Shown here in pieces: positions 5,190-42,863 of a stretch of DNA of 64,000 nt. Source of the stretch: Bacteroidales bacterium (GTDB lineage Bacteria; Bacteroidota; Bacteroidia; Bacteroidales; VadinHA17); contig JBEKWS010000008.1 of assembly GCA_049512815.1 (NCBI GenBank), forward strand, positions 7,013 through 71,012, written 5' to 3'. How positions within the stretch are numbered: the stretch's first letter is position 1; every line of letters starts with the position of its first letter. The notes beneath the pieces were generated by a model. It had not been told where the DNA came from and made no database searches. It worked only from the letters and a program-made list of their open reading frames with translations. The position numbers and the translations under genes were made by a program.

Positions 5190-6080
5190 ATGAAAAACAA
5201 GAATTCAAGAAGATCGTTCATAAAAAATATTTCATTAGCAACATTTTCGGCACTTGCACTTTCAGGTTGTAATTCGGTAGTATTTGATGAATTTCTTCAG
5301 CGAAATTTTAAAACATTATCAAAAAAGGAAAAGGATAAAATAATTAAAAATCTGGAAACTAAATACAAAGAAAAGTACGGTAAAGAATTTCATGTGTCTG
5401 ACAAACCTGCGATAGATGGAACCTTATTTGGATATGCCCTCGATTTATCCAGATGTGTTGGATGCAGGAGATGTGTTTATGCATGTGTTAAAGAAAACAA
5501 TCAGTCGCGTGAGCCTCAAATTCATTATATAGAGGTGCTTCAGATGGAAAAAGAGAAAGGGATAGATTTTGCTCATTCCACTGCTCAGTATAATCCGGAA
5601 AAAGTTCCGGAAAAAGGATATTTTTATGTGCCAGTACAATGCCAGCAGTGTCAAAATCCTCCATGTGTAAAAGTTTGCCCGGTGAAAGCCACATGGCAGG
5701 AACCTGATGGTATTACTGTGGTTGATTACAATTGGTGTATCGGATGCAGGTATTGTATGGCAGCCTGCCCCTATGGAGCAAGGCATTTCAATTGGGGCGA
5801 GCCAAATGTGCCTATTGAAGAATTAAATACTGAAGTGCATTATTTAGGTAACAGGCCAAGAATGAAGGGTGTAGTAGAAAAATGTACTTTTTGTGTTCAA
5901 AGAGCCAGAGAAGGTAAATACCCGGCATGTGTTGAAATATGCCCGGTAGGAGCAAGAAAATTCGGAAATCTTTTGGACCCCGAAAGCGAAATCAGATACA
6001 TATTAGAAAACAAACGAGTAATTGTACTGAAACAGGAATTGAACACACAACCTAAATTCTACTATTTCTTTGGTATCTAA
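5190..6080 (+). CDS. Tat-exported 4Fe-4S ferredoxin-type subunit (NrfC/HybA/PsrB-like)
   Basis: Twin-arginine motif SRRSFIK. Four Cys clusters (CVGCRRCVYAC, CQQCQNPPCVKVCP, CIGCRYCMAACP, CTFC...CVEICP). Confidence 0.85.
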   Translation: MKNKNSRRSFIKNISLATFSALALSGCNSVVFDEFLQRNFKTLSKKEKDKIIKNLETKYKEKYGKEFHVSDKPAIDGTLFGYALDLSRCVGCRRCVYACVKENNQSREPQIHYIEVLQMEKEKGIDFAHSTAQYNPEKVPEKGYFYVPVQCQQCQNPPCVKVCPVKATWQEPDGITVVDYNWCIGCRYCMAACPYGARHFNWGEPNVPIEELNTEVHYLGNRPRMKGVVEKCTFCVQRAREGKYPACVEICPVGARKFGNLLDPESEIRYILENKRVIVLKQELNTQPKFYYFFGI

Positions 6081-33423: not shown

Positions 33424-34908
33424 TTAATCTTTAGAATTTAATTTTAACATTATCTCTCTAAAGCTTTCTAATCCCGCTTCCATGTTTTCAATAATTTCAG
33501 CTGCCAGAATATCAGGATCAGGCAGGTTGTCGAGATCGGCCAGTGATTTATCTTTTATCCAGGTTATATCAAGACTGGTTTTATCCCGACTGATAATTTC
33601 CTCATAAGTGAATTTTCTCCATTGCCCTTCCGGATTAGTATCTGAATTAAATGTCTCTTTTCGAAGTTGCCTGTTGACCGGATTATAAATTTTGATGAAA
33701 TCTTTAAGGTCATCCATCTTAAGTGGATTTTTCTTAAGGGTGTGGTGAATATTTGTCCGGTAATCATAAATCCAGACTTCTCTGGTCCATGGCTCCCTGG
33801 AAGCCGGTTTGGCATCAAAAAATATGACATTCGCTTTCACACCCTGGGCATAAAATATTCCGGTCGGTAACCTCAGAATAGTATGCAGATCTGTGGTTTC
33901 CAGTATTTTTTTTCTTACGGTTTCTCCGGCGCCTCCCTCAAACAGAACATTATCAGGTACAACAACTGCTGCCTTCCCAGTAGTTTTCAGCATGGTACGT
34001 ATATGTTGTACAAAATTTAATTGCTTGTTACTTGTTGTTGCCCAGAAATCCTGACGATTGTAAGTCAGGTCTTCTTTCTCTTGTTCCCCTTCCTCATTTG
34101 TGAATGTCATGCTGCTTTTCTTTCCGAAAGGGGGATTAGTAAGTACATAATCAAACCTCATCCCGTTATCGGCAACGAGGGAATCGTTTGGAGATATTAC
34201 ATTTTCACTTTCAATATCTCCAATGTTATGAAGAAAGAGGTTCATAAGACACAGTCTTCTTGTGTTGGCAACTATCTCGTTGCCGAAGAAGGTCTTGTAT
34301 TTTAGGGATTGCTTTTGCTCAATGTTAAGTGAATGATTGGCGATCAGATTATCATATGATGCAAGGAAAAAGCCACCGGTTCCACAGGCAGGATCAGCAA
34401 TGGTTTTTTCGGGTTGAAGGTTTAAACATTCTACCATCACTTTTATAAGTGCTCGCGGAGTAAAATATTGCCCGGCCCCGCTCTTGGTATCCTCGGCATT
34501 CTTCTCGAGAAGCCCCTCATAAATCTGACCCTTGATATCTGTTCCCATCGTGCTCCACCTCTCTTTATCTATCAGATCGATCAGTTTGAACAACTTGGCC
34601 GGATCCTGAATTTTATTCTGGCTCTTGGTAAAAACCTGACCAAGAATTCCTTTTTGCTGTGATAATTCCCTGAGTAATACTGAATAATGTAGCTCAAGAG
34701 CTGCACCCGTTTTTGAAGTCAAGCTTTCCCAGTTGTATTCTTTAGGAATAGGAAGTTTACGGTTATAAGGCGGCTTGCTGAATTCATCAGCAAGCTTAAG
34801 GAACAGCAGATAAGTCAGTTGTTCAAGATAATCGCCATAGCTTACACCATCATCGCGAAGGGTGTTGCAGAAATTCCAGACTTTGCTGATTATTGTGGAT
34901 GTATTCAT
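33424..34908 (-). CDS. hsdM: Type I restriction-modification system methyltransferase subunit
   Basis: HsdM N-terminal domain (WNFCNTLRDDG), motif I DPACGTGGF and catalytic NPPFG. Confidence 0.9.
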   Translation of the reverse strand: MNTSTIISKVWNFCNTLRDDGVSYGDYLEQLTYLLFLKLADEFSKPPYNRKLPIPKEYNWESLTSKTGAALELHYSVLLRELSQQKGILGQVFTKSQNKIQDPAKLFKLIDLIDKERWSTMGTDIKGQIYEGLLEKNAEDTKSGAGQYFTPRALIKVMVECLNLQPEKTIADPACGTGGFFLASYDNLIANHSLNIEQKQSLKYKTFFGNEIVANTRRLCLMNLFLHNIGDIESENVISPNDSLVADNGMRFDYVLTNPPFGKKSSMTFTNEEGEQEKEDLTYNRQDFWATTSNKQLNFVQHIRTMLKTTGKAAVVVPDNVLFEGGAGETVRKKILETTDLHTILRLPTGIFYAQGVKANVIFFDAKPASREPWTREVWIYDYRTNIHHTLKKNPLKMDDLKDFIKIYNPVNRQLRKETFNSDTNPEGQWRKFTYEEIISRDKTSLDITWIKDKSLADLDNLPDPDILAAEIIENMEAGLESFREIMLKLNSKD

Positions 34909-34953
34909 TTTATAATTTTTATTTTCTTTCGGAAGAATTTTTCAAACTTTTCC

Positions 34954-35607
34954 AGCTCCGGAGGAGCGGTACATTAATAGTAAATTTAGTTATAAAAATA
35001 CCGAGCTCCGAAGGAGCGGGAAATTAATAGAAGAATTAATCATATCAATGTTGAGCTCCGGAGGAGCGATATCTTTAAATATCATCAAACAGATATTCGG
35101 TTTTATAGACTATATTATTATAATTAAGCAAATTAACATATTCCTCCTTGAAACTCTTCATCTTATGATGTTCTTCCTGGTTTTTAATATAATTGATTAT
35201 TGTATCCAATTCGGCAGGATTACACGTGAAGGCTCCGAATCCATGTTGCCATTCAAAACGTCCTTGAACCCATCTCTGTTCGTTGATAAAACGGGATGAG
35301 TTGGCTTTTATATCTCTGATCAGATCAGATAAAGCTATAGCGGGTTTAATGCTCAACAGAAGGTGAATATGATCGGGCATGCCATTGATTATCATTAGTT
35401 TCTGATCATTATTAGTAACGATACCTGTTATATATCTGTATAGATCATCTTTCCATCGCAGGGAGATGATGTTTTCTCTGCCTCTGACGGCAAAGACTGT
35501 ATGAATGAATAATTTTGTATATGTATCGGCCATGAGGTGTCGCTCCTCCGGAGCTCATAATATTTTATATATCAATAGTTCTATTAATATTTCGCTCCTC
35601 CGGAGCT
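34954..35607 (-). mobile_element. REPtron: a RAYT transposase gene flanked by inverted REP hairpin units
   Basis: Three forward units, (g)agctccg(g/a)aggagcg, at 34954-34968, 35003-35018 and 35053-35068. Two inverted units, cgctcctccggagct, at 35541-35556 and 35593-35607. Three of the five units carry the attaatag tail. Confidence 0.7.
35075..35533 (-). CDS. REP-associated tyrosine transposase (IS200/IS605 Y1 family, RAYT)
   Basis: MADTYTKLFIHTVFAVRGRE ... HIHLLLS (HUH motif) ... a C-terminal Tyr region. 152 aa. Confidence 0.8.
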   Translation of the reverse strand: MADTYTKLFIHTVFAVRGRENIISLRWKDDLYRYITGIVTNNDQKLMIINGMPDHIHLLLSIKPAIALSDLIRDIKANSSRFINEQRWVQGRFEWQHGFGAFTCNPAELDTIINYIKNQEEHHKMKSFKEEYVNLLNYNNIVYKTEYLFDDI

Positions 35608-36955
35608 AATTATAGTTCTCATCCGGTTTAACTAGTTTCCCTTCAAACGCCTGTTTAAGAATCGATTGCCGTAGCGATTCGGATTGTTGCAGGCAGTTTT
35701 CAATTGTCTCCTCCATCTTATCGCAGACTGAAAAACGGGTTTCGATCTCAGAAATAATATGTTGTTGTTCTTCAATTGAAGGAATCAACATTTCAATTTC
35801 CTTGAAATCTTTGATCCCGACTAAATTTGGCATTGCAGTTCCTTGTGATTGATCAAAGATTTTCTTTTGAAAAAAAGCTGTCCTAAAGTGCTGGATAAAG
35901 TATTTGTTTAGGATAATATTATTTCTTAGGCGAATTCTTAGCAACGCCTGATTAATAATGCCTGCTTTCGCATCTTTTGGGATTTCACATATTCTCCCCA
36001 GGGTTACTCCAGAGCAACTTATAATTAAATCATTAGGAATTACTTTGAAATTTTTTAATTCATTGTATTTATCCTCATTAATAAAATACTTTCCTCTGTA
36101 AGGATCATTATTTATTGCATTTCCCTGTTCATAAACCTTATAACCAACCGGTACAAAAAAATCTTTCTTGATAGCGCTCCCAAAGGGTCCTCGTCTTAAT
36201 CCCTCTTTATCGAGTGTGATGTCTTTCAATTTATAAGATTTCCATCCTACTGGCAATTCTTTTCCAGACAGGTCGTGGCCTTTCGTTAAAGTGAATCTAC
36301 CCTCAAAAGCCCACTTTAAAACTGACTGTCGATAGGTTTTCAATTGCAGCTTTACCATTCCGAGTTGCTGTTTACCTTTACCCAACTCGCTGAATAACTC
36401 TTCGATCTTGGATACTATTTGTTGTTGCTCCAAGAGAGGGGGAAGTGGAACATTTATCTTTATGTAGTCAGGGAATTTGAGATTTCTAAGATTATTACTT
36501 CCTCCCTGGTATTTAATTATTTCTCCTGTAGAGTAGAAAAATCGTAAATAATAGTTTAAAAACTTTGAATCATTTTCTTTTAAAGGTCTAATAACTCGTA
36601 AAAAATTGGTGCAAATCTTGGGTATATCTTTCTCAAAACTCAAAGTTGCTTTATCAATTAAGACAGTTCTACCAACAGGCTGCTCTGGACCGCCTCCAGA
36701 AATCTCAACAAGAATATCTCCAACTTCGAGTTGTCTGGTAATGATTGATGATTTTTTAATTTTCCGAAGAGAAGCTGTCATACCTTTTGATATTTCCCAG
36801 TTCCGTATTTCGGAACCTCTTATGCAATAAGCCAATTCATATCCAGGGTCAGAGTAAGTTATTTCTTTTCCCCAATCACCACCAATAGCTAGTTGAATCA
36901 ACTCCCTAAGACTTTTTATTTCCCAATGCTTTGGAATTGTATCTTTATCAATCAT
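35606..36955 (-). CDS. hsdS: Type I R-M specificity subunit. Start taken at the ATG at 36955, 4 nt after the upstream stop.
   Basis: Two target-recognition domains separated by conserved helices (LPPLLEQQQIVSKIEELF and IPSIEEQQHIISEIETRF; ...LKWAFEGRF and ...LKQAFEGKL). Confidence 0.85.
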   Translation of the reverse strand: MIDKDTIPKHWEIKSLRELIQLAIGGDWGKEITYSDPGYELAYCIRGSEIRNWEISKGMTASLRKIKKSSIITRQLEVGDILVEISGGGPEQPVGRTVLIDKATLSFEKDIPKICTNFLRVIRPLKENDSKFLNYYLRFFYSTGEIIKYQGGSNNLRNLKFPDYIKINVPLPPLLEQQQIVSKIEELFSELGKGKQQLGMVKLQLKTYRQSVLKWAFEGRFTLTKGHDLSGKELPVGWKSYKLKDITLDKEGLRRGPFGSAIKKDFFVPVGYKVYEQGNAINNDPYRGKYFINEDKYNELKNFKVIPNDLIISCSGVTLGRICEIPKDAKAGIINQALLRIRLRNNIILNKYFIQHFRTAFFQKKIFDQSQGTAMPNLVGIKDFKEIEMLIPSIEEQQHIISEIETRFSVCDKMEETIENCLQQSESLRQSILKQAFEGKLVKPDENYN

Positions 36956-36959
36956 TATA

Positions 36960-37685
36960 TTAAATTGAACTAACCTTTTGAGGTATTTCTGTGTATTGTT
37001 TCCCTTGAAGTAATTTTCCGTTTTTCTTTTTATTTGTGCCACCCCATTGTTTAAAATAAAAGGTAACATTTGCATTCCGACATTGATCTTTAATATCCAG
37101 GACCCATTCTTCTTTTACAGGGCGCGGTGTCCTGCCGCTTTCTCCACCAACAATAACCCAGTCAATATCTGCAAGATTCATACCGGAGATCTCAGTTAGT
37201 AATGGTTCGCAACTTAGGAATTTGATTTTTGCTCCGGTTTGTCTCAGTAAATCAATGCGTTTTGTAACGGTATTATCTTCAACCGTAACTCCCATCCAGA
37301 TATTATGTGTCCATTCAAGATAACCTTCTTTATCATAATATAAGAGCAGATCAGCTCGCTTTGTAAGTATTTGAAAAACATGGTGAGGGTTCTCCTTCAT
37401 TATCTTAAAGACATCTATTATATATTGTACAGGTATATCTTTATGGAAAAGATCGCTCATTGAGTTAACAAAGATCACTCTCGGTTTCTTCCATGTATAA
37501 GGTTCCTTTAGTGTTTCAGGATGCAAAGTCAGATTGAAACCATTCAGGTATTTCTCCTGTCCCATCGCCTGTAGCCTGCGGGTCATAACTTCGGCATAAC
37601 AGTTCTTACAACCGGCAGAAATCTTTGTACAACCTGTTATCGGATTCCAGGTCGATTCGGTCCATTCTATTTTGGTTTTAGCCAT
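36960..37685 (-). CDS. DUF5131 / phage Gp37-Gp68 family three-Cys-motif protein
   Basis: N-terminus MAKTKIEWTESTWNPITGCTKISAGCKNCYAE (a CX6CX2C triad) and C-terminal WVIVGGESG...FYFKQWGG. Family recognised from memory (PF07505). Confidence 0.75.
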   Translation of the reverse strand: MAKTKIEWTESTWNPITGCTKISAGCKNCYAEVMTRRLQAMGQEKYLNGFNLTLHPETLKEPYTWKKPRVIFVNSMSDLFHKDIPVQYIIDVFKIMKENPHHVFQILTKRADLLLYYDKEGYLEWTHNIWMGVTVEDNTVTKRIDLLRQTGAKIKFLSCEPLLTEISGMNLADIDWVIVGGESGRTPRPVKEEWVLDIKDQCRNANVTFYFKQWGGTNKKKNGKLLQGKQYTEIPQKVSSI

Positions 37686-38561: not shown

Positions 38562-39671
38562 TTAGTTTTTATATAAGTCGGAAATTATCTCCAGTACATT
38601 TTTATTATAAAGAGGTTGGTTTCCATAAGAGACCTTACCATCGTGAGCAAGCTTTCCCACAATAATAGCCGGATGAACTTCATATTTTTCAGCACACTCT
38701 TCAACCTTTGAAGTTGTCAGATAACCGATATAAGGTTCGAGAAACGAAATGATTTCATTGTGATTCAGATGCTTTGATGCAAGTTCATTTGCTTCATTCT
38801 CAAGTTTGTCGATTTGCCCGTTTTTCAGATCGTCAAGAATGAAAGGGGTTTTTTCATTCAGATGTTTTAAGATATGTGCTATTTCATGTGCAACCGTAAA
38901 CCAGAAATTATCGATCCTGTGATACCTGCCGGTATAGACAATTACAGGATTTTCACCAGAATAAAATGCTGCGCCATCGAGATATGTTTTTAACAGGTGA
39001 GGGAGAACGAAGAAGATTACCCCGACCATGTTTAGTTCCTTAATAAAGATGTTTATACCATCAGGTTTAATTGTATACGAATGAAGATCGTCATATAATG
39101 CTATAAGTTTTTCAAGATTATATTTGCTAACCTTTTTTTCGGCAGCAACAATGCAGGCTTTCTGATACCAGGTTAGAGCATAAGAGGCATTGAATTGATT
39201 AAATGCCTCTGACTTTCTGGTAAGGCATGGTAACTGTTTATCCAAAACTGAAAAATCAAGCTTTTTCCAACCCCAAAATTCTAAAACCTGATTTTTTAAG
39301 TCATCTAAATCTCTAAAAGGATTCAACCACCCCTTTTTTACCATATCATTAACAGGCATCCTTTCATAAATAGTGCCTTTTAAATCTGCTGCAATTTCTT
39401 TTTCCGATCTTTCCTGTTCAAGCCATAACCTGTAGCCGGTATCGATGTTAATCCAGTATTGTGCCGATGTATCAAAAACCTCACCCAGTAATCTTGCAAT
39501 TTCGAGAGTTATGGCCTGCTTGTTTTTGAGTATCTTGTTTAAATGTTTTTCTGATACTCCAATAACATCAGCCAGATCTTCCTGTATCCAATGACGTAAG
39601 TCCATCTGTTCCTGAATAAAATATCCCGCACCAAATTTCTTTGCTGCTCTTAGTTGTGTCGTCTGTACCAT
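38562..39671 (-). CDS. XRE-family HTH protein fused to an ImmA/IrrE (M78) metallopeptidase domain (HigA-like antitoxin or regulator)
   Basis: N-terminal HTH (LADVIGVSEKHLNKILKNKQ) and C-terminal HEIAH zinc motif. Confidence 0.8.
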   Translation of the reverse strand: MVQTTQLRAAKKFGAGYFIQEQMDLRHWIQEDLADVIGVSEKHLNKILKNKQAITLEIARLLGEVFDTSAQYWINIDTGYRLWLEQERSEKEIAADLKGTIYERMPVNDMVKKGWLNPFRDLDDLKNQVLEFWGWKKLDFSVLDKQLPCLTRKSEAFNQFNASYALTWYQKACIVAAEKKVSKYNLEKLIALYDDLHSYTIKPDGINIFIKELNMVGVIFFVLPHLLKTYLDGAAFYSGENPVIVYTGRYHRIDNFWFTVAHEIAHILKHLNEKTPFILDDLKNGQIDKLENEANELASKHLNHNEIISFLEPYIGYLTTSKVEECAEKYEVHPAIIVGKLAHDGKVSYGNQPLYNKNVLEIISDLYKN

Positions 39672-39683
39672 AATTCCTGATTG

Positions 39684-39995
39684 TTAATCTCCATAATGAG
39701 ATGAGATCACTACAATGATGAATTCTCCAACTGTATTATCGATGTTTTTCCATTCAATTTCCATTTCGAGTCTGTACTTTCCTGTAAGCCTCATTGAATA
39801 ACGCTTCTTAAATCCTCTTAGTTTTTCAAATTTGAGTCCACTGTCTTTCCAAAAATCATGGATACTGGTTGCTGATTCAATCTTCTGAACTGTTGCAAAG
39901 AATTTGTCAATTACGGTTTCAGGAAGCCTGAGTTTTTTTGAACTCCCTGTTTCGTAAAGTTTAATTAACTCTTTATCATTTATTTGGACATTCAA
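39684..39995 (-). CDS. HigB-like (RelE/ParE superfamily) toxin with a TTG start
   Basis: 103 aa with the pattern ...FEKLRGFKKRYSMRLTGKYRLEMEI...SSHYGD, typical of killer-protein HigB. Directly upstream of the HTH gene. Confidence 0.65.
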   Translation of the reverse strand: MNVQINDKELIKLYETGSSKKLRLPETVIDKFFATVQKIESATSIHDFWKDSGLKFEKLRGFKKRYSMRLTGKYRLEMEIEWKNIDNTVGEFIIVVISSHYGD

Positions 39996-40085: not shown

Positions 40086-42863
40086 TTATGCAGCTAGCAC
40101 CTCATTAAGTTCGGCTATGATTAATTCACAATCTTCTCCAAACAACTGCCACATCTTACCTTTTCCCCCGAATGCATTGAAAGGAGTATAATCGAGATCA
40201 TCATACTCAATATGAATGCTTGTGGCAATATGATCTTTTATCATTCTCAGCCAACTCATTTGTGATTCACTGAATTTAAGTGTCCCGGCTTGTTTTTTAA
40301 ATACCCACTCCCGGAAATTTTTATCAACTGTTTTGTCATAACTGGTAAGATCCTTGTCAATACCTGTTATTTTCCTGAGTAACGAGATAAGTGCGATCAT
40401 TTCATTTTTTGGTGATCCTGTTACTTTTTCAATCTGGCTGTATGCCTGCCAGATATTCATAGGAGCCAGAAGAGGTTTATCTGAAATCAGATGATCAACA
40501 AGTTCCTTCATCATTTTGAAAGTAATCTCACGTCTTCTGAGCGGTTGATTATAAAATATCTGCAACGCAACAATTTCATTCTTATGAGTTTCGATCCAGC
40601 TTTTGAAACTTTCTACCAGCTCCGCAGCATTTGATTTATTGTCCTTATCCCATCCTGCAAAAATGATCTTGTCGCGGTTAATGTCATCGATTACCTGTTC
40701 ATGTGCTTTTCTGACATTTTCAATGTAAGTATTGAGTTCACCAGTAAAGATCGAAGCGGCAGTTTCAATTAATTCATTATGTCTGCGGGTTAATTCATTC
40801 TCTTTATCAACTGGAGGAGAGGTGGCAAATTCCGATTCAACTTTTAACCTTACCCCTTCAATAATATCAGGATCATAAGCATTCAGAAGTTCTTTTATAG
40901 TCTGATTTATGGTTTTACCTTTGGCTTTCTCTGCAAAAAGATTTTTTTCTTTTTCTGTAATTTGTTTTTCAAGTCTTATTAGTCTGTTAGCAATCGATGA
41001 AAAAAGATCATCATCACGCACCCCCACTGCAATTGCGCCCAGCAAATCCTTCAGCGGAATTCCTGGTTTCTTTTCAAGAGGACGACTGTCGGTCTTCAGG
41101 CTTTTGGTAACACCAACAGAATCAACAATTACAAAATGGTCTTTCGTATATTTAGCTGAAGGGCTGACTTTCCTCAGATCATCTAGCGAGATTGTCCGGG
41201 TTCCCCGACCTTTCATCTGTTCAAAATAATTCCGGCTTTTCACATCTCGCATAAACAGAAGACATTCGAGAGGTTTCACATCGGTACCGGTAGCAATCAT
41301 ATCTACTGTAACTGCTATCCTCGGATGATAGGCGTTTCGAAATTGTGCAAGAACAGATTTGGTATCTTCTTCAGATTTATAAGTCAGCTTTTTACAAAAC
41401 CTGTTCTCTTCGGCAAACTCCTCCCTGACTATTTGAATAATGTCATCCGCGTGTGAATCAGTCTTTGCAAAAATCAGAGTTTTAGGCACTTCAAATTCGC
41501 CATTTTCTGAGAATCTCTCAGGAAACATGTCGGGAAGATGATCTTTAAAGTTTTTGATAATTGTTCTGATCTGATTAGGATTAACAACTTCATCGTCAAG
41601 TTTCTTATTTGAATAGACCAGATCCTCATCCAGCTGATCCCAACGCTTTTTTCGGGTCAGTTTTTCACGATGGTCAACAAATTCTCCTTTCCAGATTTTT
41701 GAGCCCTTCTTAGTAATATCAGTTTCAATGAGGAAAATATTATAGCCGACATTAACCCCATCGACAACAGCCTGCTGGTGAGTGTATTCACTTACAATAT
41801 TTTGTCTGAAATATCCGAATGTCCTGTTATCGGGTGTTGCAGTCAGTCCGACCTGGAAAGAATCGAAATATTCGAGAACCTGTTTCCAGAGGTTATAAAT
41901 ACTTCGGTGGCATTCATCAATAACCACAAAATCAAAAAACTCTACCGGCAGTTTTGCATTATAGACAACAGGAACCGGTTCGCGTTTTTGCCAACTAATT
42001 TCTCCCGGATTTGTTTCTTCAGCTTCTTCAGGAAGTTCCTCTCCTTTTAATATAGAGTATAATCGTTGTATAGTACTGATACAAACCTGGCTGTCAGAAG
42101 CTACGTAACTGCTTCTTAACCTCTGTACATTATAGAGTTCCGTGAACTTACGGTTGTCGTCTGTTGGCGTATAAGCCATAAATTCCTGTTCTGCCTGTTC
42201 ACCCAGGTTACGTGTGTCGACAAGGAACAGTATCCGCCTGGCGCCACTGAATTTAAGTAGCCTGTAAATTGAGGTTATGGCTGTATATGTCTTGCCTGAT
42301 CCGGTAGCCATCTGGATCAGAGCGCGAGGTCTGCTCTCTTTAAAAGATTTTTCCAGATTCCGGATCGCAACAATCTGGCAGTCTCTTAATCCTGTTGTTG
42401 TTAGTAACGGTAAGTCCAATAATCTTTTTCTGAGAGTCTTCTCTTTTTTATTCCACTCACGGAATGTTTCCGGTTTGTGAAAAGTAAAGGTTGGTCTCGA
42501 TCGCGGTTTTGGATCGCGGTAATCTGTAAAACGAGTTAGTTCACCTGTACTTTCATATACAAAAGGTAGAGGATCATTATTCAGATATTTGAGTTTGCTT
42601 TCCGCGTAATCCCTGGATTGTTCTTCATAATCTGTAAGACGGAAACCTTCCTCTACTTTTTTTGCTTCAATTATTCCTACAGGTTGTTTATCGACGAAAA
42701 GTAAATAGTCAGCAGGTCCGGTATCCGTTTGGTATTCCCTTATAGCTATACCGATCCCGGCATTCAGATTAATCTCTTTCTTATTCTGAATTGTCCAACC
42801 ACAGGCAATCAATTGCTTGTCAATATTATCACGAGCTATTTGTTCGGGGTTTTGGTTGGGCAT
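40086..42863 (-). CDS. hsdR: Type I restriction endonuclease subunit R (EcoEI-like, 925 aa)
   Basis: N-terminal nuclease domain, helicase motif I MATGSGKT, motif II DECHR, and a long C-terminal helical domain. Confidence 0.9.
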   Translation of the reverse strand: MPNQNPEQIARDNIDKQLIACGWTIQNKKEINLNAGIGIAIREYQTDTGPADYLLFVDKQPVGIIEAKKVEEGFRLTDYEEQSRDYAESKLKYLNNDPLPFVYESTGELTRFTDYRDPKPRSRPTFTFHKPETFREWNKKEKTLRKRLLDLPLLTTTGLRDCQIVAIRNLEKSFKESRPRALIQMATGSGKTYTAITSIYRLLKFSGARRILFLVDTRNLGEQAEQEFMAYTPTDDNRKFTELYNVQRLRSSYVASDSQVCISTIQRLYSILKGEELPEEAEETNPGEISWQKREPVPVVYNAKLPVEFFDFVVIDECHRSIYNLWKQVLEYFDSFQVGLTATPDNRTFGYFRQNIVSEYTHQQAVVDGVNVGYNIFLIETDITKKGSKIWKGEFVDHREKLTRKKRWDQLDEDLVYSNKKLDDEVVNPNQIRTIIKNFKDHLPDMFPERFSENGEFEVPKTLIFAKTDSHADDIIQIVREEFAEENRFCKKLTYKSEEDTKSVLAQFRNAYHPRIAVTVDMIATGTDVKPLECLLFMRDVKSRNYFEQMKGRGTRTISLDDLRKVSPSAKYTKDHFVIVDSVGVTKSLKTDSRPLEKKPGIPLKDLLGAIAVGVRDDDLFSSIANRLIRLEKQITEKEKNLFAEKAKGKTINQTIKELLNAYDPDIIEGVRLKVESEFATSPPVDKENELTRRHNELIETAASIFTGELNTYIENVRKAHEQVIDDINRDKIIFAGWDKDNKSNAAELVESFKSWIETHKNEIVALQIFYNQPLRRREITFKMMKELVDHLISDKPLLAPMNIWQAYSQIEKVTGSPKNEMIALISLLRKITGIDKDLTSYDKTVDKNFREWVFKKQAGTLKFSESQMSWLRMIKDHIATSIHIEYDDLDYTPFNAFGGKGKMWQLFGEDCELIIAELNEVLAA

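Follow-up and report, generated by a model that had tools for sequence, protein, structure and literature searches.

Why would a gene of the Y1 (HUH) transposase superfamily, bracketed by inverted copies of a short hairpin, sit in the middle of a Type I restriction-modification (R-M) operon? The gene lies in a 64-kb stretch of DNA (the window) from a Bacteroidales metagenome-assembled genome (MAG). With its hairpins it forms a 654-bp cassette at 34954-35607, exactly between hsdS and hsdM. A preliminary description of this DNA had called the cassette a REPtron, that is, a transposase of the RAYT family together with repetitive extragenic palindromic (REP) hairpins. The best explanation of our results is that the cassette is REPtron-like, and combines Y1 with a cognate hairpin, AGCTCC-N3-GGAGCG, which often has an ATT(A/T)ATAG tail. 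Judging from sequence comparisons, it is best explained as a long-resident, vertically co-inherited passenger of the hsdS-hsdM spacer, and not as a freshly landed insertion sequence (IS). More specifically, we think that it is probably a domesticated and locally acting Y1-hairpin cassette of TnpAY1 subclass 1.2 that has become long-term cargo of the operon. The data do not require any role in restriction or modification.

We searched both strands of the window for AGCTCCGGAGGAGCG, with up to two mismatches, and found five matches: 34954, 35004, and 35054 on the plus strand, and 35541 and 35593 on the minus strand. By chance, 0.04 matches would be expected, and none of 100 dinucleotide-preserving shuffles reached five. 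The copy at 35004 has one mismatch (the loop is GAA instead of GGA). A relaxed search of the same 64 kb, using GCTCCNNAGGAGC with one mismatch, added just one doubtful site, at 5767. The Y1 gene itself (35075-35533, minus strand) encodes 152 amino acids; three of the copies are downstream of it and the other two, which are inverted, are upstream. On the side with three copies, successive copies are 50 nt apart, and the two on the opposite side are 52 nt apart; TRF detects 2.3 copies of a 50-nt period at 34954-35068.

The three outer units have GGAGC-N5-ATTAATAG in common. These are the outer downstream unit (AGCTCCGGAGGAGCG-GTAC-ATTAATAG, 34954-34980, plus strand, 45 nt upstream of the hsdM start codon), the middle downstream unit (AGCTCCGAAGGAGCG-GGAA-ATTAATAG, 35004-35030, plus strand, which has the one loop substitution), and the outer upstream unit (AGCTCCGGAGGAGCG-AAAT-ATTAATAG, 35581-35607, minus strand). 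The two inner units do not have the tail: one (35541-35555, minus strand) ends 7 nt before the ATG of Y1, and the other (35054-35068, plus strand, inverted relative to the upstream units) is 6 nt past its stop codon. The units on the left read as the reverse complement of those on the right, and this extends to their flanking bases and tail; the two outermost units make up a terminal inverted repeat (TIR) of 27 nt that is 89% complementary. On the same strand as Y1, hsdS (Methylase_S) is immediately upstream and hsdM (N6_Mtase and HsdM_N) is immediately downstream. In the hsdS stop codon (TAG, 35608-35606), the AG doubles as the first two bases of the outermost hairpin unit. The preliminary description was accurate on all of these points: five hairpin copies around an open reading frame (ORF) of 152 codons, a tail shared by three of them, the overlap with the hsdS stop codon, the placement of the cassette between hsdS and hsdM (confirmed by the Pfam matches of its neighbors), and no other copy of the repeat in 64 kb.

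What kind of protein is Y1? It matches Pfam's Y1_Tnp (92 bits) and has the motifs H55-I-H57, W95-Q96, and Y115-x3-Q119-x2-H122-H123. Across 44 homologs, the HUH motif, Y115, and Q119 are invariant or nearly so, and the tail (residues 120-152) is conserved. Among NCBIfam models, the protein scores 72.7 bits against transpos_IS200 (NF033573), above the cut-off of 55, and 31.9 bits against REP_Tyr_transpos (NF047646), below the cut-off of 80. Its sequence and profile matches in the PDB are TnpA proteins of the IS200/IS605 group only (from ISDra2, IS608, and Sulfolobus); the profile search of the PDB did not reach the RAYT of E. coli (4ER8), even at E ≤ 10. When we compared an AlphaFold2 model (pLDDT 88) to known structures with Foldseek, the best matches were again the TnpAs of ISDra2 and IS608 (E ~1e-8), and 4ER8 was at rank 30 (E = 3.6e-6, full-length alignment, TMq 0.64). 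The hallmark of RAYTs is NP(L/V)(R/K)xG beside the catalytic tyrosine (Nunvar 2010, PMC2817692). This motif is not found in the Y1 protein, which has YIKNQEEHH(K) at the catalytic tyrosine. Given its low score against NF047646, the missing motif, and the failure of the profile to match 4ER8, we rejected the idea that Y1 is a canonical RAYT. The hairpins in the window also lack the GT(A/G)G head of REPs.

REPtrons are defined by a Y1 gene that has inverted hairpin repeats close by on both sides (Nunvar 2010, PMC2817692; Di Nocera 2013, PMC3733652), and in this sense the preliminary description of the cassette stands; its identification of the protein as a RAYT and of the repeats as REPs does not. 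It had also considered the opposite case, an IS200/IS605 TnpA with IS ends. The protein does match TnpA, but the ends are inverted hairpins and are not of the IS type.

Comparison to Table 1 of PMC6006769 points to a more specific assignment. The motifs DHIH, (E)WQ, and YIKNQEEHH, the length of 152 amino acids, and the conserved tail are the signature of TnpAY1 subclass 1.2, and the Bacteroidales source, the single copy in the window, and the ends that are unlike those of IS200 all agree with membership. Subclass 1.2 is near the IS200 transposases, and is described as low-copy, lacking IS properties, found mainly in Cyanobacteria and Bacteroidetes, and without REPs (PMC6006769). It is reported at 1.7 copies per genome, and such copies are 36% identical to each other (Quentin 2018, PMC6006769). 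The same study had already catalogued relatives of Y1 from Bacteroidetes (PMC6006769). As its motifs are intact, the Y1 protein is best explained as a putative catalytically intact HUH/Y1 nuclease-ligase for single-stranded DNA, from the IS200/IS605 superfamily and subclass 1.2.

The family is strongly conserved: identity across phyla is 53-68%. At E ≤ 1e-30, our library of representative proteins has 137 clusters (formed at 50% identity). (Proteins are named by P numbers and loci by L numbers; these handles are our own.) Proteins of ~290 amino acids with two tandem Y1 domains are among the top representative matches (P0121-P0124, P0129, P0130, and others), and may be fused pseudo-dimers of this normally dimeric enzyme family. 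In P0060, which is from L002 (Flavobacterium album CP029186), H-I-Y replaces H-U-H at the metal-binding motif. L002 retains flanking hairpins, some of which have compensatory ACTCC/GGAGT stems.

We also examined the relatives of Y1 in 80 loci from species-representative genomes, which are the best matches among at least 574 genome hits, and in several metagenome loci. The exact core, GCTCC-N3-GGAGC, occurs within 2 kb of Y1 in 64 of 84 loci, and these are from Bacteroidota, Acidobacteriota, Verrucomicrobiota, Poribacteria, and other phyla. With a more variable stem (RYNCC/GGNRY), a copy is found within 300 bp in 78 of the 82 loci that are flanked on both sides, and in 58 there are copies both upstream and downstream of Y1. 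Within 300 bp of Y1, the GCTCC stem is enriched 110-fold relative to flanks more than 2 kb away, and perfect hairpins with a 5-bp stem and a 3-nt loop are 5 times denser. Furthermore, near Y1 there is a 20- to 350-fold enrichment of variant stems that remain fully complementary (GCCCC, GCGCC, GCCAC, GCACC, ACTCC, and others). Because each variant requires matching changes on both arms, the pairing of the stem is under selection; the loop varies freely among relatives.

The arrangement of the hairpins is conserved as well. Downstream, the copy closest to Y1 is usually 7-25 nt past the stop codon, with the sequence C-GCTCC...GGAGC-T (about 30 related loci); upstream, the closest copy is often 9-25 nt ahead of the ATG, with the sequence A-GCTCC...GGAGC-G (about 17 related loci). 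The flanking copies are inverted in nearly all of the relatives' loci, and the ATT(A/T)ATAG tail reappears in loci from Flavobacterium. Away from Y1, the hairpin is rare: in 1.05 Mb of flanking sequence more than 2 kb from Y1, there are only three cores outside of two Poribacteria loci with multiple Y1 genes, which is about as many as chance would give for ten specified bases. Since the hairpin is confined to the neighborhood of Y1, both in the 64-kb window and in the relatives' flanks, it does not appear to be a genome-wide REP. On the strength of these comparisons, the GCNCC-N3-GGNGC hairpin appears to be the cognate partner of the Y1 family and not a local accident, and the system looks REPtron-like in its organization but locally acting.

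Some loci have tandem arrays of the hairpin beside Y1, with at most 18-40 cores (L032, L033, L064, and L089). The arrays have periods of 25 nt, 50 nt, or a composite of 145-190 nt (L032, L033, L064, L072, and L091). Examples of arrays with a strict 25-nt period or composite repeats of 145-190 nt are L064:946-1160, L042:574-660, and L032:9050-11250. The composite repeats combine the core with other hairpins, such as GGCTGCAnCGCAGCC, AGCCCCATCGGGGC, and a variant with a 4-nt loop, AGCTCCGTCAGGAGCG. L089, from Candidatus Poribacteria, has three copies of Y1 and 40 cores within 20 kb, and L052 has two copies of Y1; these are the only sampled loci in which the hairpin seems to have multiplied and spread as a true REP family would.

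How long has the cassette been in the operon? The locus of the nearest relative is L003, whose Y1 is 88% identical. L003 is collinear with the window from hsdR to DUF5131 (90% nucleotide identity), and the collinearity resumes within hsdS and continues across the entire cassette into hsdM (86% identity). Only the target recognition domains (TRDs) of hsdS have been replaced. We considered that the hairpins might be the boundaries of the TRD swap, but the break between the window and L003 is inside hsdS, at about 35784 and away from the hairpins, which rules this out. Between the window and L003, the synonymous divergence (dS) of Y1 is 0.48, compared to 0.24-0.62 for the neighboring genes, and the dN/dS of Y1 is 0.12. 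By these measures, Y1 has diverged together with the operon and under purifying selection. Because the cassette is collinear with the operon in L003, and because its dS is equal to that of its neighbors, it is not a recent insertion. The homologs of Y1 at 88%, 84%, and 80% identity are all in the order hsdS-Y1-hsdM; one at 69% identity is not.

The window has exactly one 50-nt hairpin-plus-spacer unit more than L003 does. The extra unit is directly past the stop codon of Y1 and includes 35054-35068. The comparison thus shows that such units are gained or lost whole. We found no target-site motif: the bases before the outer hairpin vary by locus (ATAATT, TCGGTT, ATTTG, AATAG, ACCCC, or ACCAA). 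We also saw no direct duplication at the borders of the cassette when reading the compared loci.

For the family as a whole, the largest single context is hemF-Y1-hemB, in 12 of the 80 genome loci as scored by the sizes and strands of the neighboring ORFs; Pfam supported hemF (Coprogen_oxidas) as the upstream neighbor in 12 and ALAD as the downstream neighbor in 8. These loci (L013-L016, L018, L021-L025, L037, and L051) are from Flavobacterium, Flagellimonas, and other Bacteroidota. Synteny across genera argues for long vertical inheritance.

Nor is this position unique: Y1-hairpin cassettes recur beside R-M genes in several lineages. About 1 in 8 of the sampled relatives of Y1 adjoins R-M genes, and these neighbors are far more common than their share of the genome would suggest. 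In 7 of the 80 genomes, either hsdS or a Type IIG enzyme is directly upstream of Y1. A Type I S subunit is found there in L028, L029, L058, and L057 (the last is a MAG from Acidobacteria whose hsdM is just 34% identical), and an enzyme of the Type IIG Eco57I/MmeI type is found there in L044, L055, and L077. (The TaqI_C specificity domain was individually confirmed for L044 only; our summary of neighbors includes three TaqI_C matches, in upstream ORFs of up to 1300 amino acids, without naming the loci.) Another lineage of Bacteroidota, L007-L012 (Y1 65% identical), also has the order hsdS-Y1-hsdM, with the hairpin inside the 3' end of hsdS and the ATG of Y1 2 nt past the hsdS stop codon. In L017 and L019, a truncated rhuM is directly upstream of Y1 in a Type I operon. 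Genes downstream of Y1 in some loci encode ResIII, HNH_2, TIR_2, or AbiEii-like (AAA_21) proteins. The R-M-adjacent Y1 genes occupy at least five separate places in a rough neighbor-joining tree (computed without bootstrap), and we reject their monophyly on this basis. As for the truncated rhuM genes (L017:9487-9996 and L019:9511-9996), they are cut to 161-169 amino acids, cover positions 1-72 of the 252 in the profile, and end 5 nt before Y1. They are within an hsdM...hsdR operon, and the remaining part of rhuM is absent downstream.

The view from hsdM is different. We examined the 80 closest relatives of hsdM (75-91% identity; metagenome loci L093-L172), and found Y1 in the spacer of L123 and L137 only. 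Many of these relatives have 1-4 kb of unrelated DNA in the hsdS-hsdM slot, and L094 has an uninterrupted junction of 14 nt. In this type of operon, the hsdS-hsdM spacer is a variable slot for cargo, and the cassette is dispensable from the hsdM side. Hairpins without any Y1 gene are found directly past the hsdS stop codon in L093, which is the closest relative of hsdM (91% identical), and in L095, which has another after hsdR. In L137, the hairpin and flank that precede Y1 are repeated before hsdM (hairpin-Y1-inverted hairpins-hairpin). The solo hairpins and the layout of L137 would be consistent with a cassette that is occasionally lost or moved at hairpins.

Two of these loci have other elements in the same slot. 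At L093:6670-6990, the solo hairpin, which has the tail, is followed by a different palindromic element of ~190 nt with arms of the GGAGATCCTTCGC...GTCATTCCGAGCG type. At L123:1100-1840, the Y1 is more distant (52% identical) and is flanked by other hairpins: GACTGC-AAA-GCAGTC, GACCC-TGAAA-GGGTC, and CGACCCC-TTCG-GGGGTCG.

We propose the following mechanism. By homology to the TnpAs of IS608 and ISDra2, the enzyme would bind the hairpin, with its 5-bp stem and 3-nt loop, on single-stranded DNA. It would then cleave and religate beside the hairpin, using Y115 and a metal ion held by H55, H57, and Q119. Comparison of the loci suggests that the local outcome would be the gain or loss of hairpin-plus-spacer units, leading to tandem arrays around Y1, and that the cassette may occasionally relocate or leave solo hairpins behind. 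As to expression, Y1 is probably transcribed by read-through from hsdS, because the genes are co-directional, there is no strong terminator after hsdS, and there is no strong sigma-70-type promoter before Y1. (Our scan of the cassette found no strong intrinsic terminator and no strong promoter of the sigma-70 type, which is the type that it covers and which leaves out Bacteroidota promoters; it found one weak terminator-like match, at 35017-35005.) The hairpin before the ATG contains GGAGGA, which resembles a Shine-Dalgarno sequence, within its stem; from its position, this hairpin may limit translation, as in IS200.

The preliminary description had also suggested that the hairpins could adjust the dosage of hsdM and hsdS. 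A single hairpin is weak, at -4.2 kcal/mol as DNA and about -7 to -8 as RNA. Neighboring units can pair with each other, and the upstream pair reaches -22 kcal/mol as RNA (z = -3.4). Only one hairpin unit has a terminator-like, T-rich tail. Because the single hairpins are weak and just one has such a tail, control of hsdM/hsdS dosage is possible but unsupported. Rfam had no match in the window above the gathering thresholds, and there were two chance-level matches within 34700-35800.

We considered several other explanations. Could this be an ordinary, active insertion sequence of the IS200 type that landed between hsdS and hsdM by chance? The NCBIfam name (above its cut-off), the nearest solved structures, which are of IS transposases, and the 27-nt inverted ends count in its favor. 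The truncated rhuM that ends 5 nt before the start of Y1 in L017 and L019 resembles an insertion scar, and many of the metagenome contigs with homologs are ~1 kb, which fits a repeat (most contigs in that collection are short anyway). However, the ends of IS200/IS605 elements are subterminal hairpins on the same strand, without inverted repeats (PMC6006769), while the hairpins of this family are inverted in nearly all loci. Other features also seem inconsistent with an active IS: there is one copy in the window, no tnpB is present, the dS of Y1 is equal to that of its neighbors with dN/dS of 0.12, the hemF-hemB synteny is kept across genera, and subclass 1.2 has the low copy number and divergent copies mentioned above (Quentin 2018). 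We consider an active IS to be quite unlikely. A canonical RAYT/REP system as in Gammaproteobacteria, with its REPs dispersed outside of the window, seems very improbable, even though it would explain the REPtron-like layout and the inverted flanking hairpins. Several homologs are annotated by JGI as "REP element-mobilizing transposase RayT," the predicted fold aligns to 4ER8 over its whole length, and the 40 cores within 20 kb of the Poribacteria locus L089 are reminiscent of REPs. But as explained above, the protein is far below the cut-off of NF047646, its sequence profile misses 4ER8, and neither the NP(L/V)(R/K)xG motif nor the GT(A/G)G head is found; also, there are no further copies in 64 kb, and across 1 Mb of the relatives' DNA the density of cores more than 2 kb from Y1 is about that expected by chance. 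Alternatively, the hairpins might not be DNA substrates of the enzyme at all, and might act only on the RNA of Y1, by occluding the ribosome-binding site upstream and by acting as a stabilizer or attenuator at the 3' end. This would account for the fixed short distance between the inner upstream copy, which contains GGAGG, and the ATG, and for the position of the inner downstream copy right behind the stop codon; IS200 blocks its own ribosome-binding site with such a stem-loop (PMC4513863). We give this explanation little credence. Arrays of 10-40 copies, with periods of 25 and 50 nt, in both orientations, and hundreds of bases from Y1, are difficult to reconcile with it, as are solo copies in loci without a Y1 gene, and the conserved tail and the inverted arrangement would be unnecessary for control of RNA.

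The remaining alternative is that the cassette is a functional accessory of R-M, which tunes the expression of hsdS and hsdM or whose Y1 promotes the exchange or movement of specificity genes. The order hsdS-Y1-hsdM recurs in the window, in L003, L007, L028, L029, L058, L123, L137, and L174, at the locus of P0008, and in L057. The Type IIG enzymes upstream of Y1 in L044, L055, and L077, the at least five placements of R-M-adjacent genes in the tree, and the other neighbors of the defense type (RhuM, ResIII, HNH_2, TIR_2, and AbiEii-like AAA_21) are suggestive, and so are the solo hairpins past hsdS in L093 and L095 and the duplicated hairpin flank before hsdM in L137. Nevertheless, most members of the Y1 family are not near R-M genes (12 of 80 are at hemF-hemB, and many are by unrelated housekeeping genes), Y1 is present in just 2 of the 80 closest relatives of hsdM, the boundary of the TRD swap relative to L003 is inside hsdS and not at a hairpin, and the single hairpins are weak and mostly lack T-tracts. 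R-M and defense loci are rich in mobile cargo and are horizontally mobile, which alone could explain the enrichment of R-M genes near Y1. Overall, we consider an accessory role to be unlikely.

Some observations weigh against the long-resident, locally acting cassette that we favor. We infer the binding and cleavage of the hairpin by members of subclass 1.2 from analogy to other TnpAs; the hairpins could be, in part, regulatory elements at the level of RNA; and the copy count for the source genome covers the 64-kb window, beyond which there may be further hairpin copies. The one-unit difference between the window and L003 could be explained by replication slippage between the repeats, without any enzyme. 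Also, the recurrence of Y1 beside R-M specificity genes exceeds what would be expected of a neutral passenger, and selection or targeting may be involved. On the other side of that comparison, the fraction of loci near R-M genes may be somewhat inflated, because the query alignment for the 80 genome loci included three R-M-embedded sequences. One bolder proposal is that subclass 1.2 Y1 proteins, together with GCNCC-N3-GGNGC hairpins, make up a REPtron-like system in its own right, which belongs to the IS200 side of the superfamily, spans phyla, and is coupled functionally or mechanistically to R-M loci. We are doubtful of this proposal. One form that the coupling could take is that the cassette excises and re-integrates at solo hairpins just after specificity genes, as the layouts of L137, L093, and L095 might indicate; another possibility is that it modulates the expression or the exchange of the specificity module.

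The surrounding operon encodes hsdR, hsdM, and hsdS, all on the minus strand (identified by the Pfam families ResIII, EcoEI_R_C, and HSDR_N; N6_Mtase and HsdM_N; and Methylase_S, respectively), with ordinary chromosomal genes on both sides. In order of transcription, it comprises hsdR (40086-42863, by Pfam), a HigB-like toxin (39684-39995), an HTH/Peptidase_M78 protein (38562-39671), TcmP (TIGR04474, 37688-38560), DUF5131 (36960-37685), the Type I specificity subunit hsdS (35606-36955, 449 amino acids), Y1, and the Type I methylase subunit hsdM (33424-34908, 494 amino acids, by Pfam). The list of ORFs had placed the start of hsdS at 37075 (489 amino acids); we corrected this to 36955, directly after DUF5131, based on the gene call for an identical 15-kb Logan contig. 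The genes between hsdR and hsdS thus form two accessory pairs: the HigB-like toxin with HTH/Peptidase_M78, and TcmP with DUF5131. The sets of accessory genes differ among related operons; for instance, L007 has DUF3644.

How does the cassette relate to known systems? It is closest to TnpAY1 subclass 1.2 (Quentin, Siguier, Chandler, and Fichant 2018, BMC Genomics 19:475; PMC6006769), whose published features are DH[IV]H, WQ, YIKNQKEHH (Y---Q--HH), ~148 amino acids, a conserved C-terminal tail of ~30 amino acids, Bacteroidetes as one of two main phyla, low copy number, and no typical IS200 ends (PMC6006769). In contrast to the published entry of "REP: no," we find an inverted hairpin in 78 of 82 loci, often in arrays (PMC6006769). 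The range that we find is also wider, and includes Acidobacteriota, Verrucomicrobiota, Poribacteria, Chlorobiota, and Ignavibacteria-like MAGs, and the association with R-M genes is not mentioned in that paper (PMC6006769). The cassette resembles the REPtrons of RAYT/REP systems (PMC2817692; Ton-Hoang/Messing 2012, PDB 4ER8; Bertels 2017, PMC5581495) in having a single-copy Y1 with inverted hairpins near its start and stop codons, sometimes with arrays like those of bacterial interspersed mosaic elements (BIMEs), and in its vertical inheritance and purifying selection. It differs in that the protein is from class 1 (the IS200 side) instead of class 2 and lacks NP(L/V)(R/K)xG; in that the hairpin is just 13-15 nt, with a 5-bp stem and no GTAG head, and is not dispersed across the genome; and in that the stem is conserved across phyla instead of co-varying species by species. 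With the TnpAs of IS608, ISDra2, and IS200, which are its best matches by sequence and structure, Y1 shares the fold, HUH and Y-x3-Q motifs, and a similar size, and the hairpin near the start codon recalls the stem of IS200 that occludes the ribosome-binding site. Unlike those elements, it has inverted hairpins, no multiple identical copies (in the 64-kb window), no tnpB, a location that is syntenic over long distances, and the additional conserved HH and C-terminal tail. TIRYTs and their TIRtrons (Di Nocera 2013, PMC3733652) also pair a Y1 gene with terminal inverted repeats (27 nt in our case) instead of abundant REPs, and have small or absent repeat families, but they have long class 2.1 proteins with HTH tails and TIRs of the GGGGWSAS type, neither of which is found here (PMC3733652). 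Finally, the arrangement is like that of other Type I R-M operons with embedded genes: HigB-like/HTH-M78 and TcmP/DUF5131 are in the hsdR-hsdS interval, Y1 is in the hsdS-hsdM interval, and relatives have other cargo in these slots.

We searched the literature for Y1 or RAYT genes in R-M operons, for follow-ups on subclass 1.2, and for RayT in Bacteroidetes; only PMC6006769, PMC3733652, PMC2817692, and PMC5581495 were relevant. The one match to both RAYT and hsdS was false, and came from a reference list. None of the literature that we searched describes a Type I R-M operon in which a Y1/HUH gene is embedded as cargo. Relative to that literature, both the cognate hairpin of subclass 1.2 and the repeated residence of its members by R-M genes, often directly after the specificity gene, appear to be new.

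As of 2018, subclass 1.2 was an orphan near the IS200 transposases that did not behave as an IS and had no known DNA partner. A conserved and simple hairpin, with a 5-bp stem, a 3-nt loop, and compensatory changes only in the stem, gives it a testable substrate. It also indicates that REPtron-like organization exists beyond the classical RAYT clade, which bears on how Y1 transposases become domesticated. The recurrence beside R-M genes is either an example of cargo that hitch-hikes on mobile defense operons, or it hints at an accessory function that is new.

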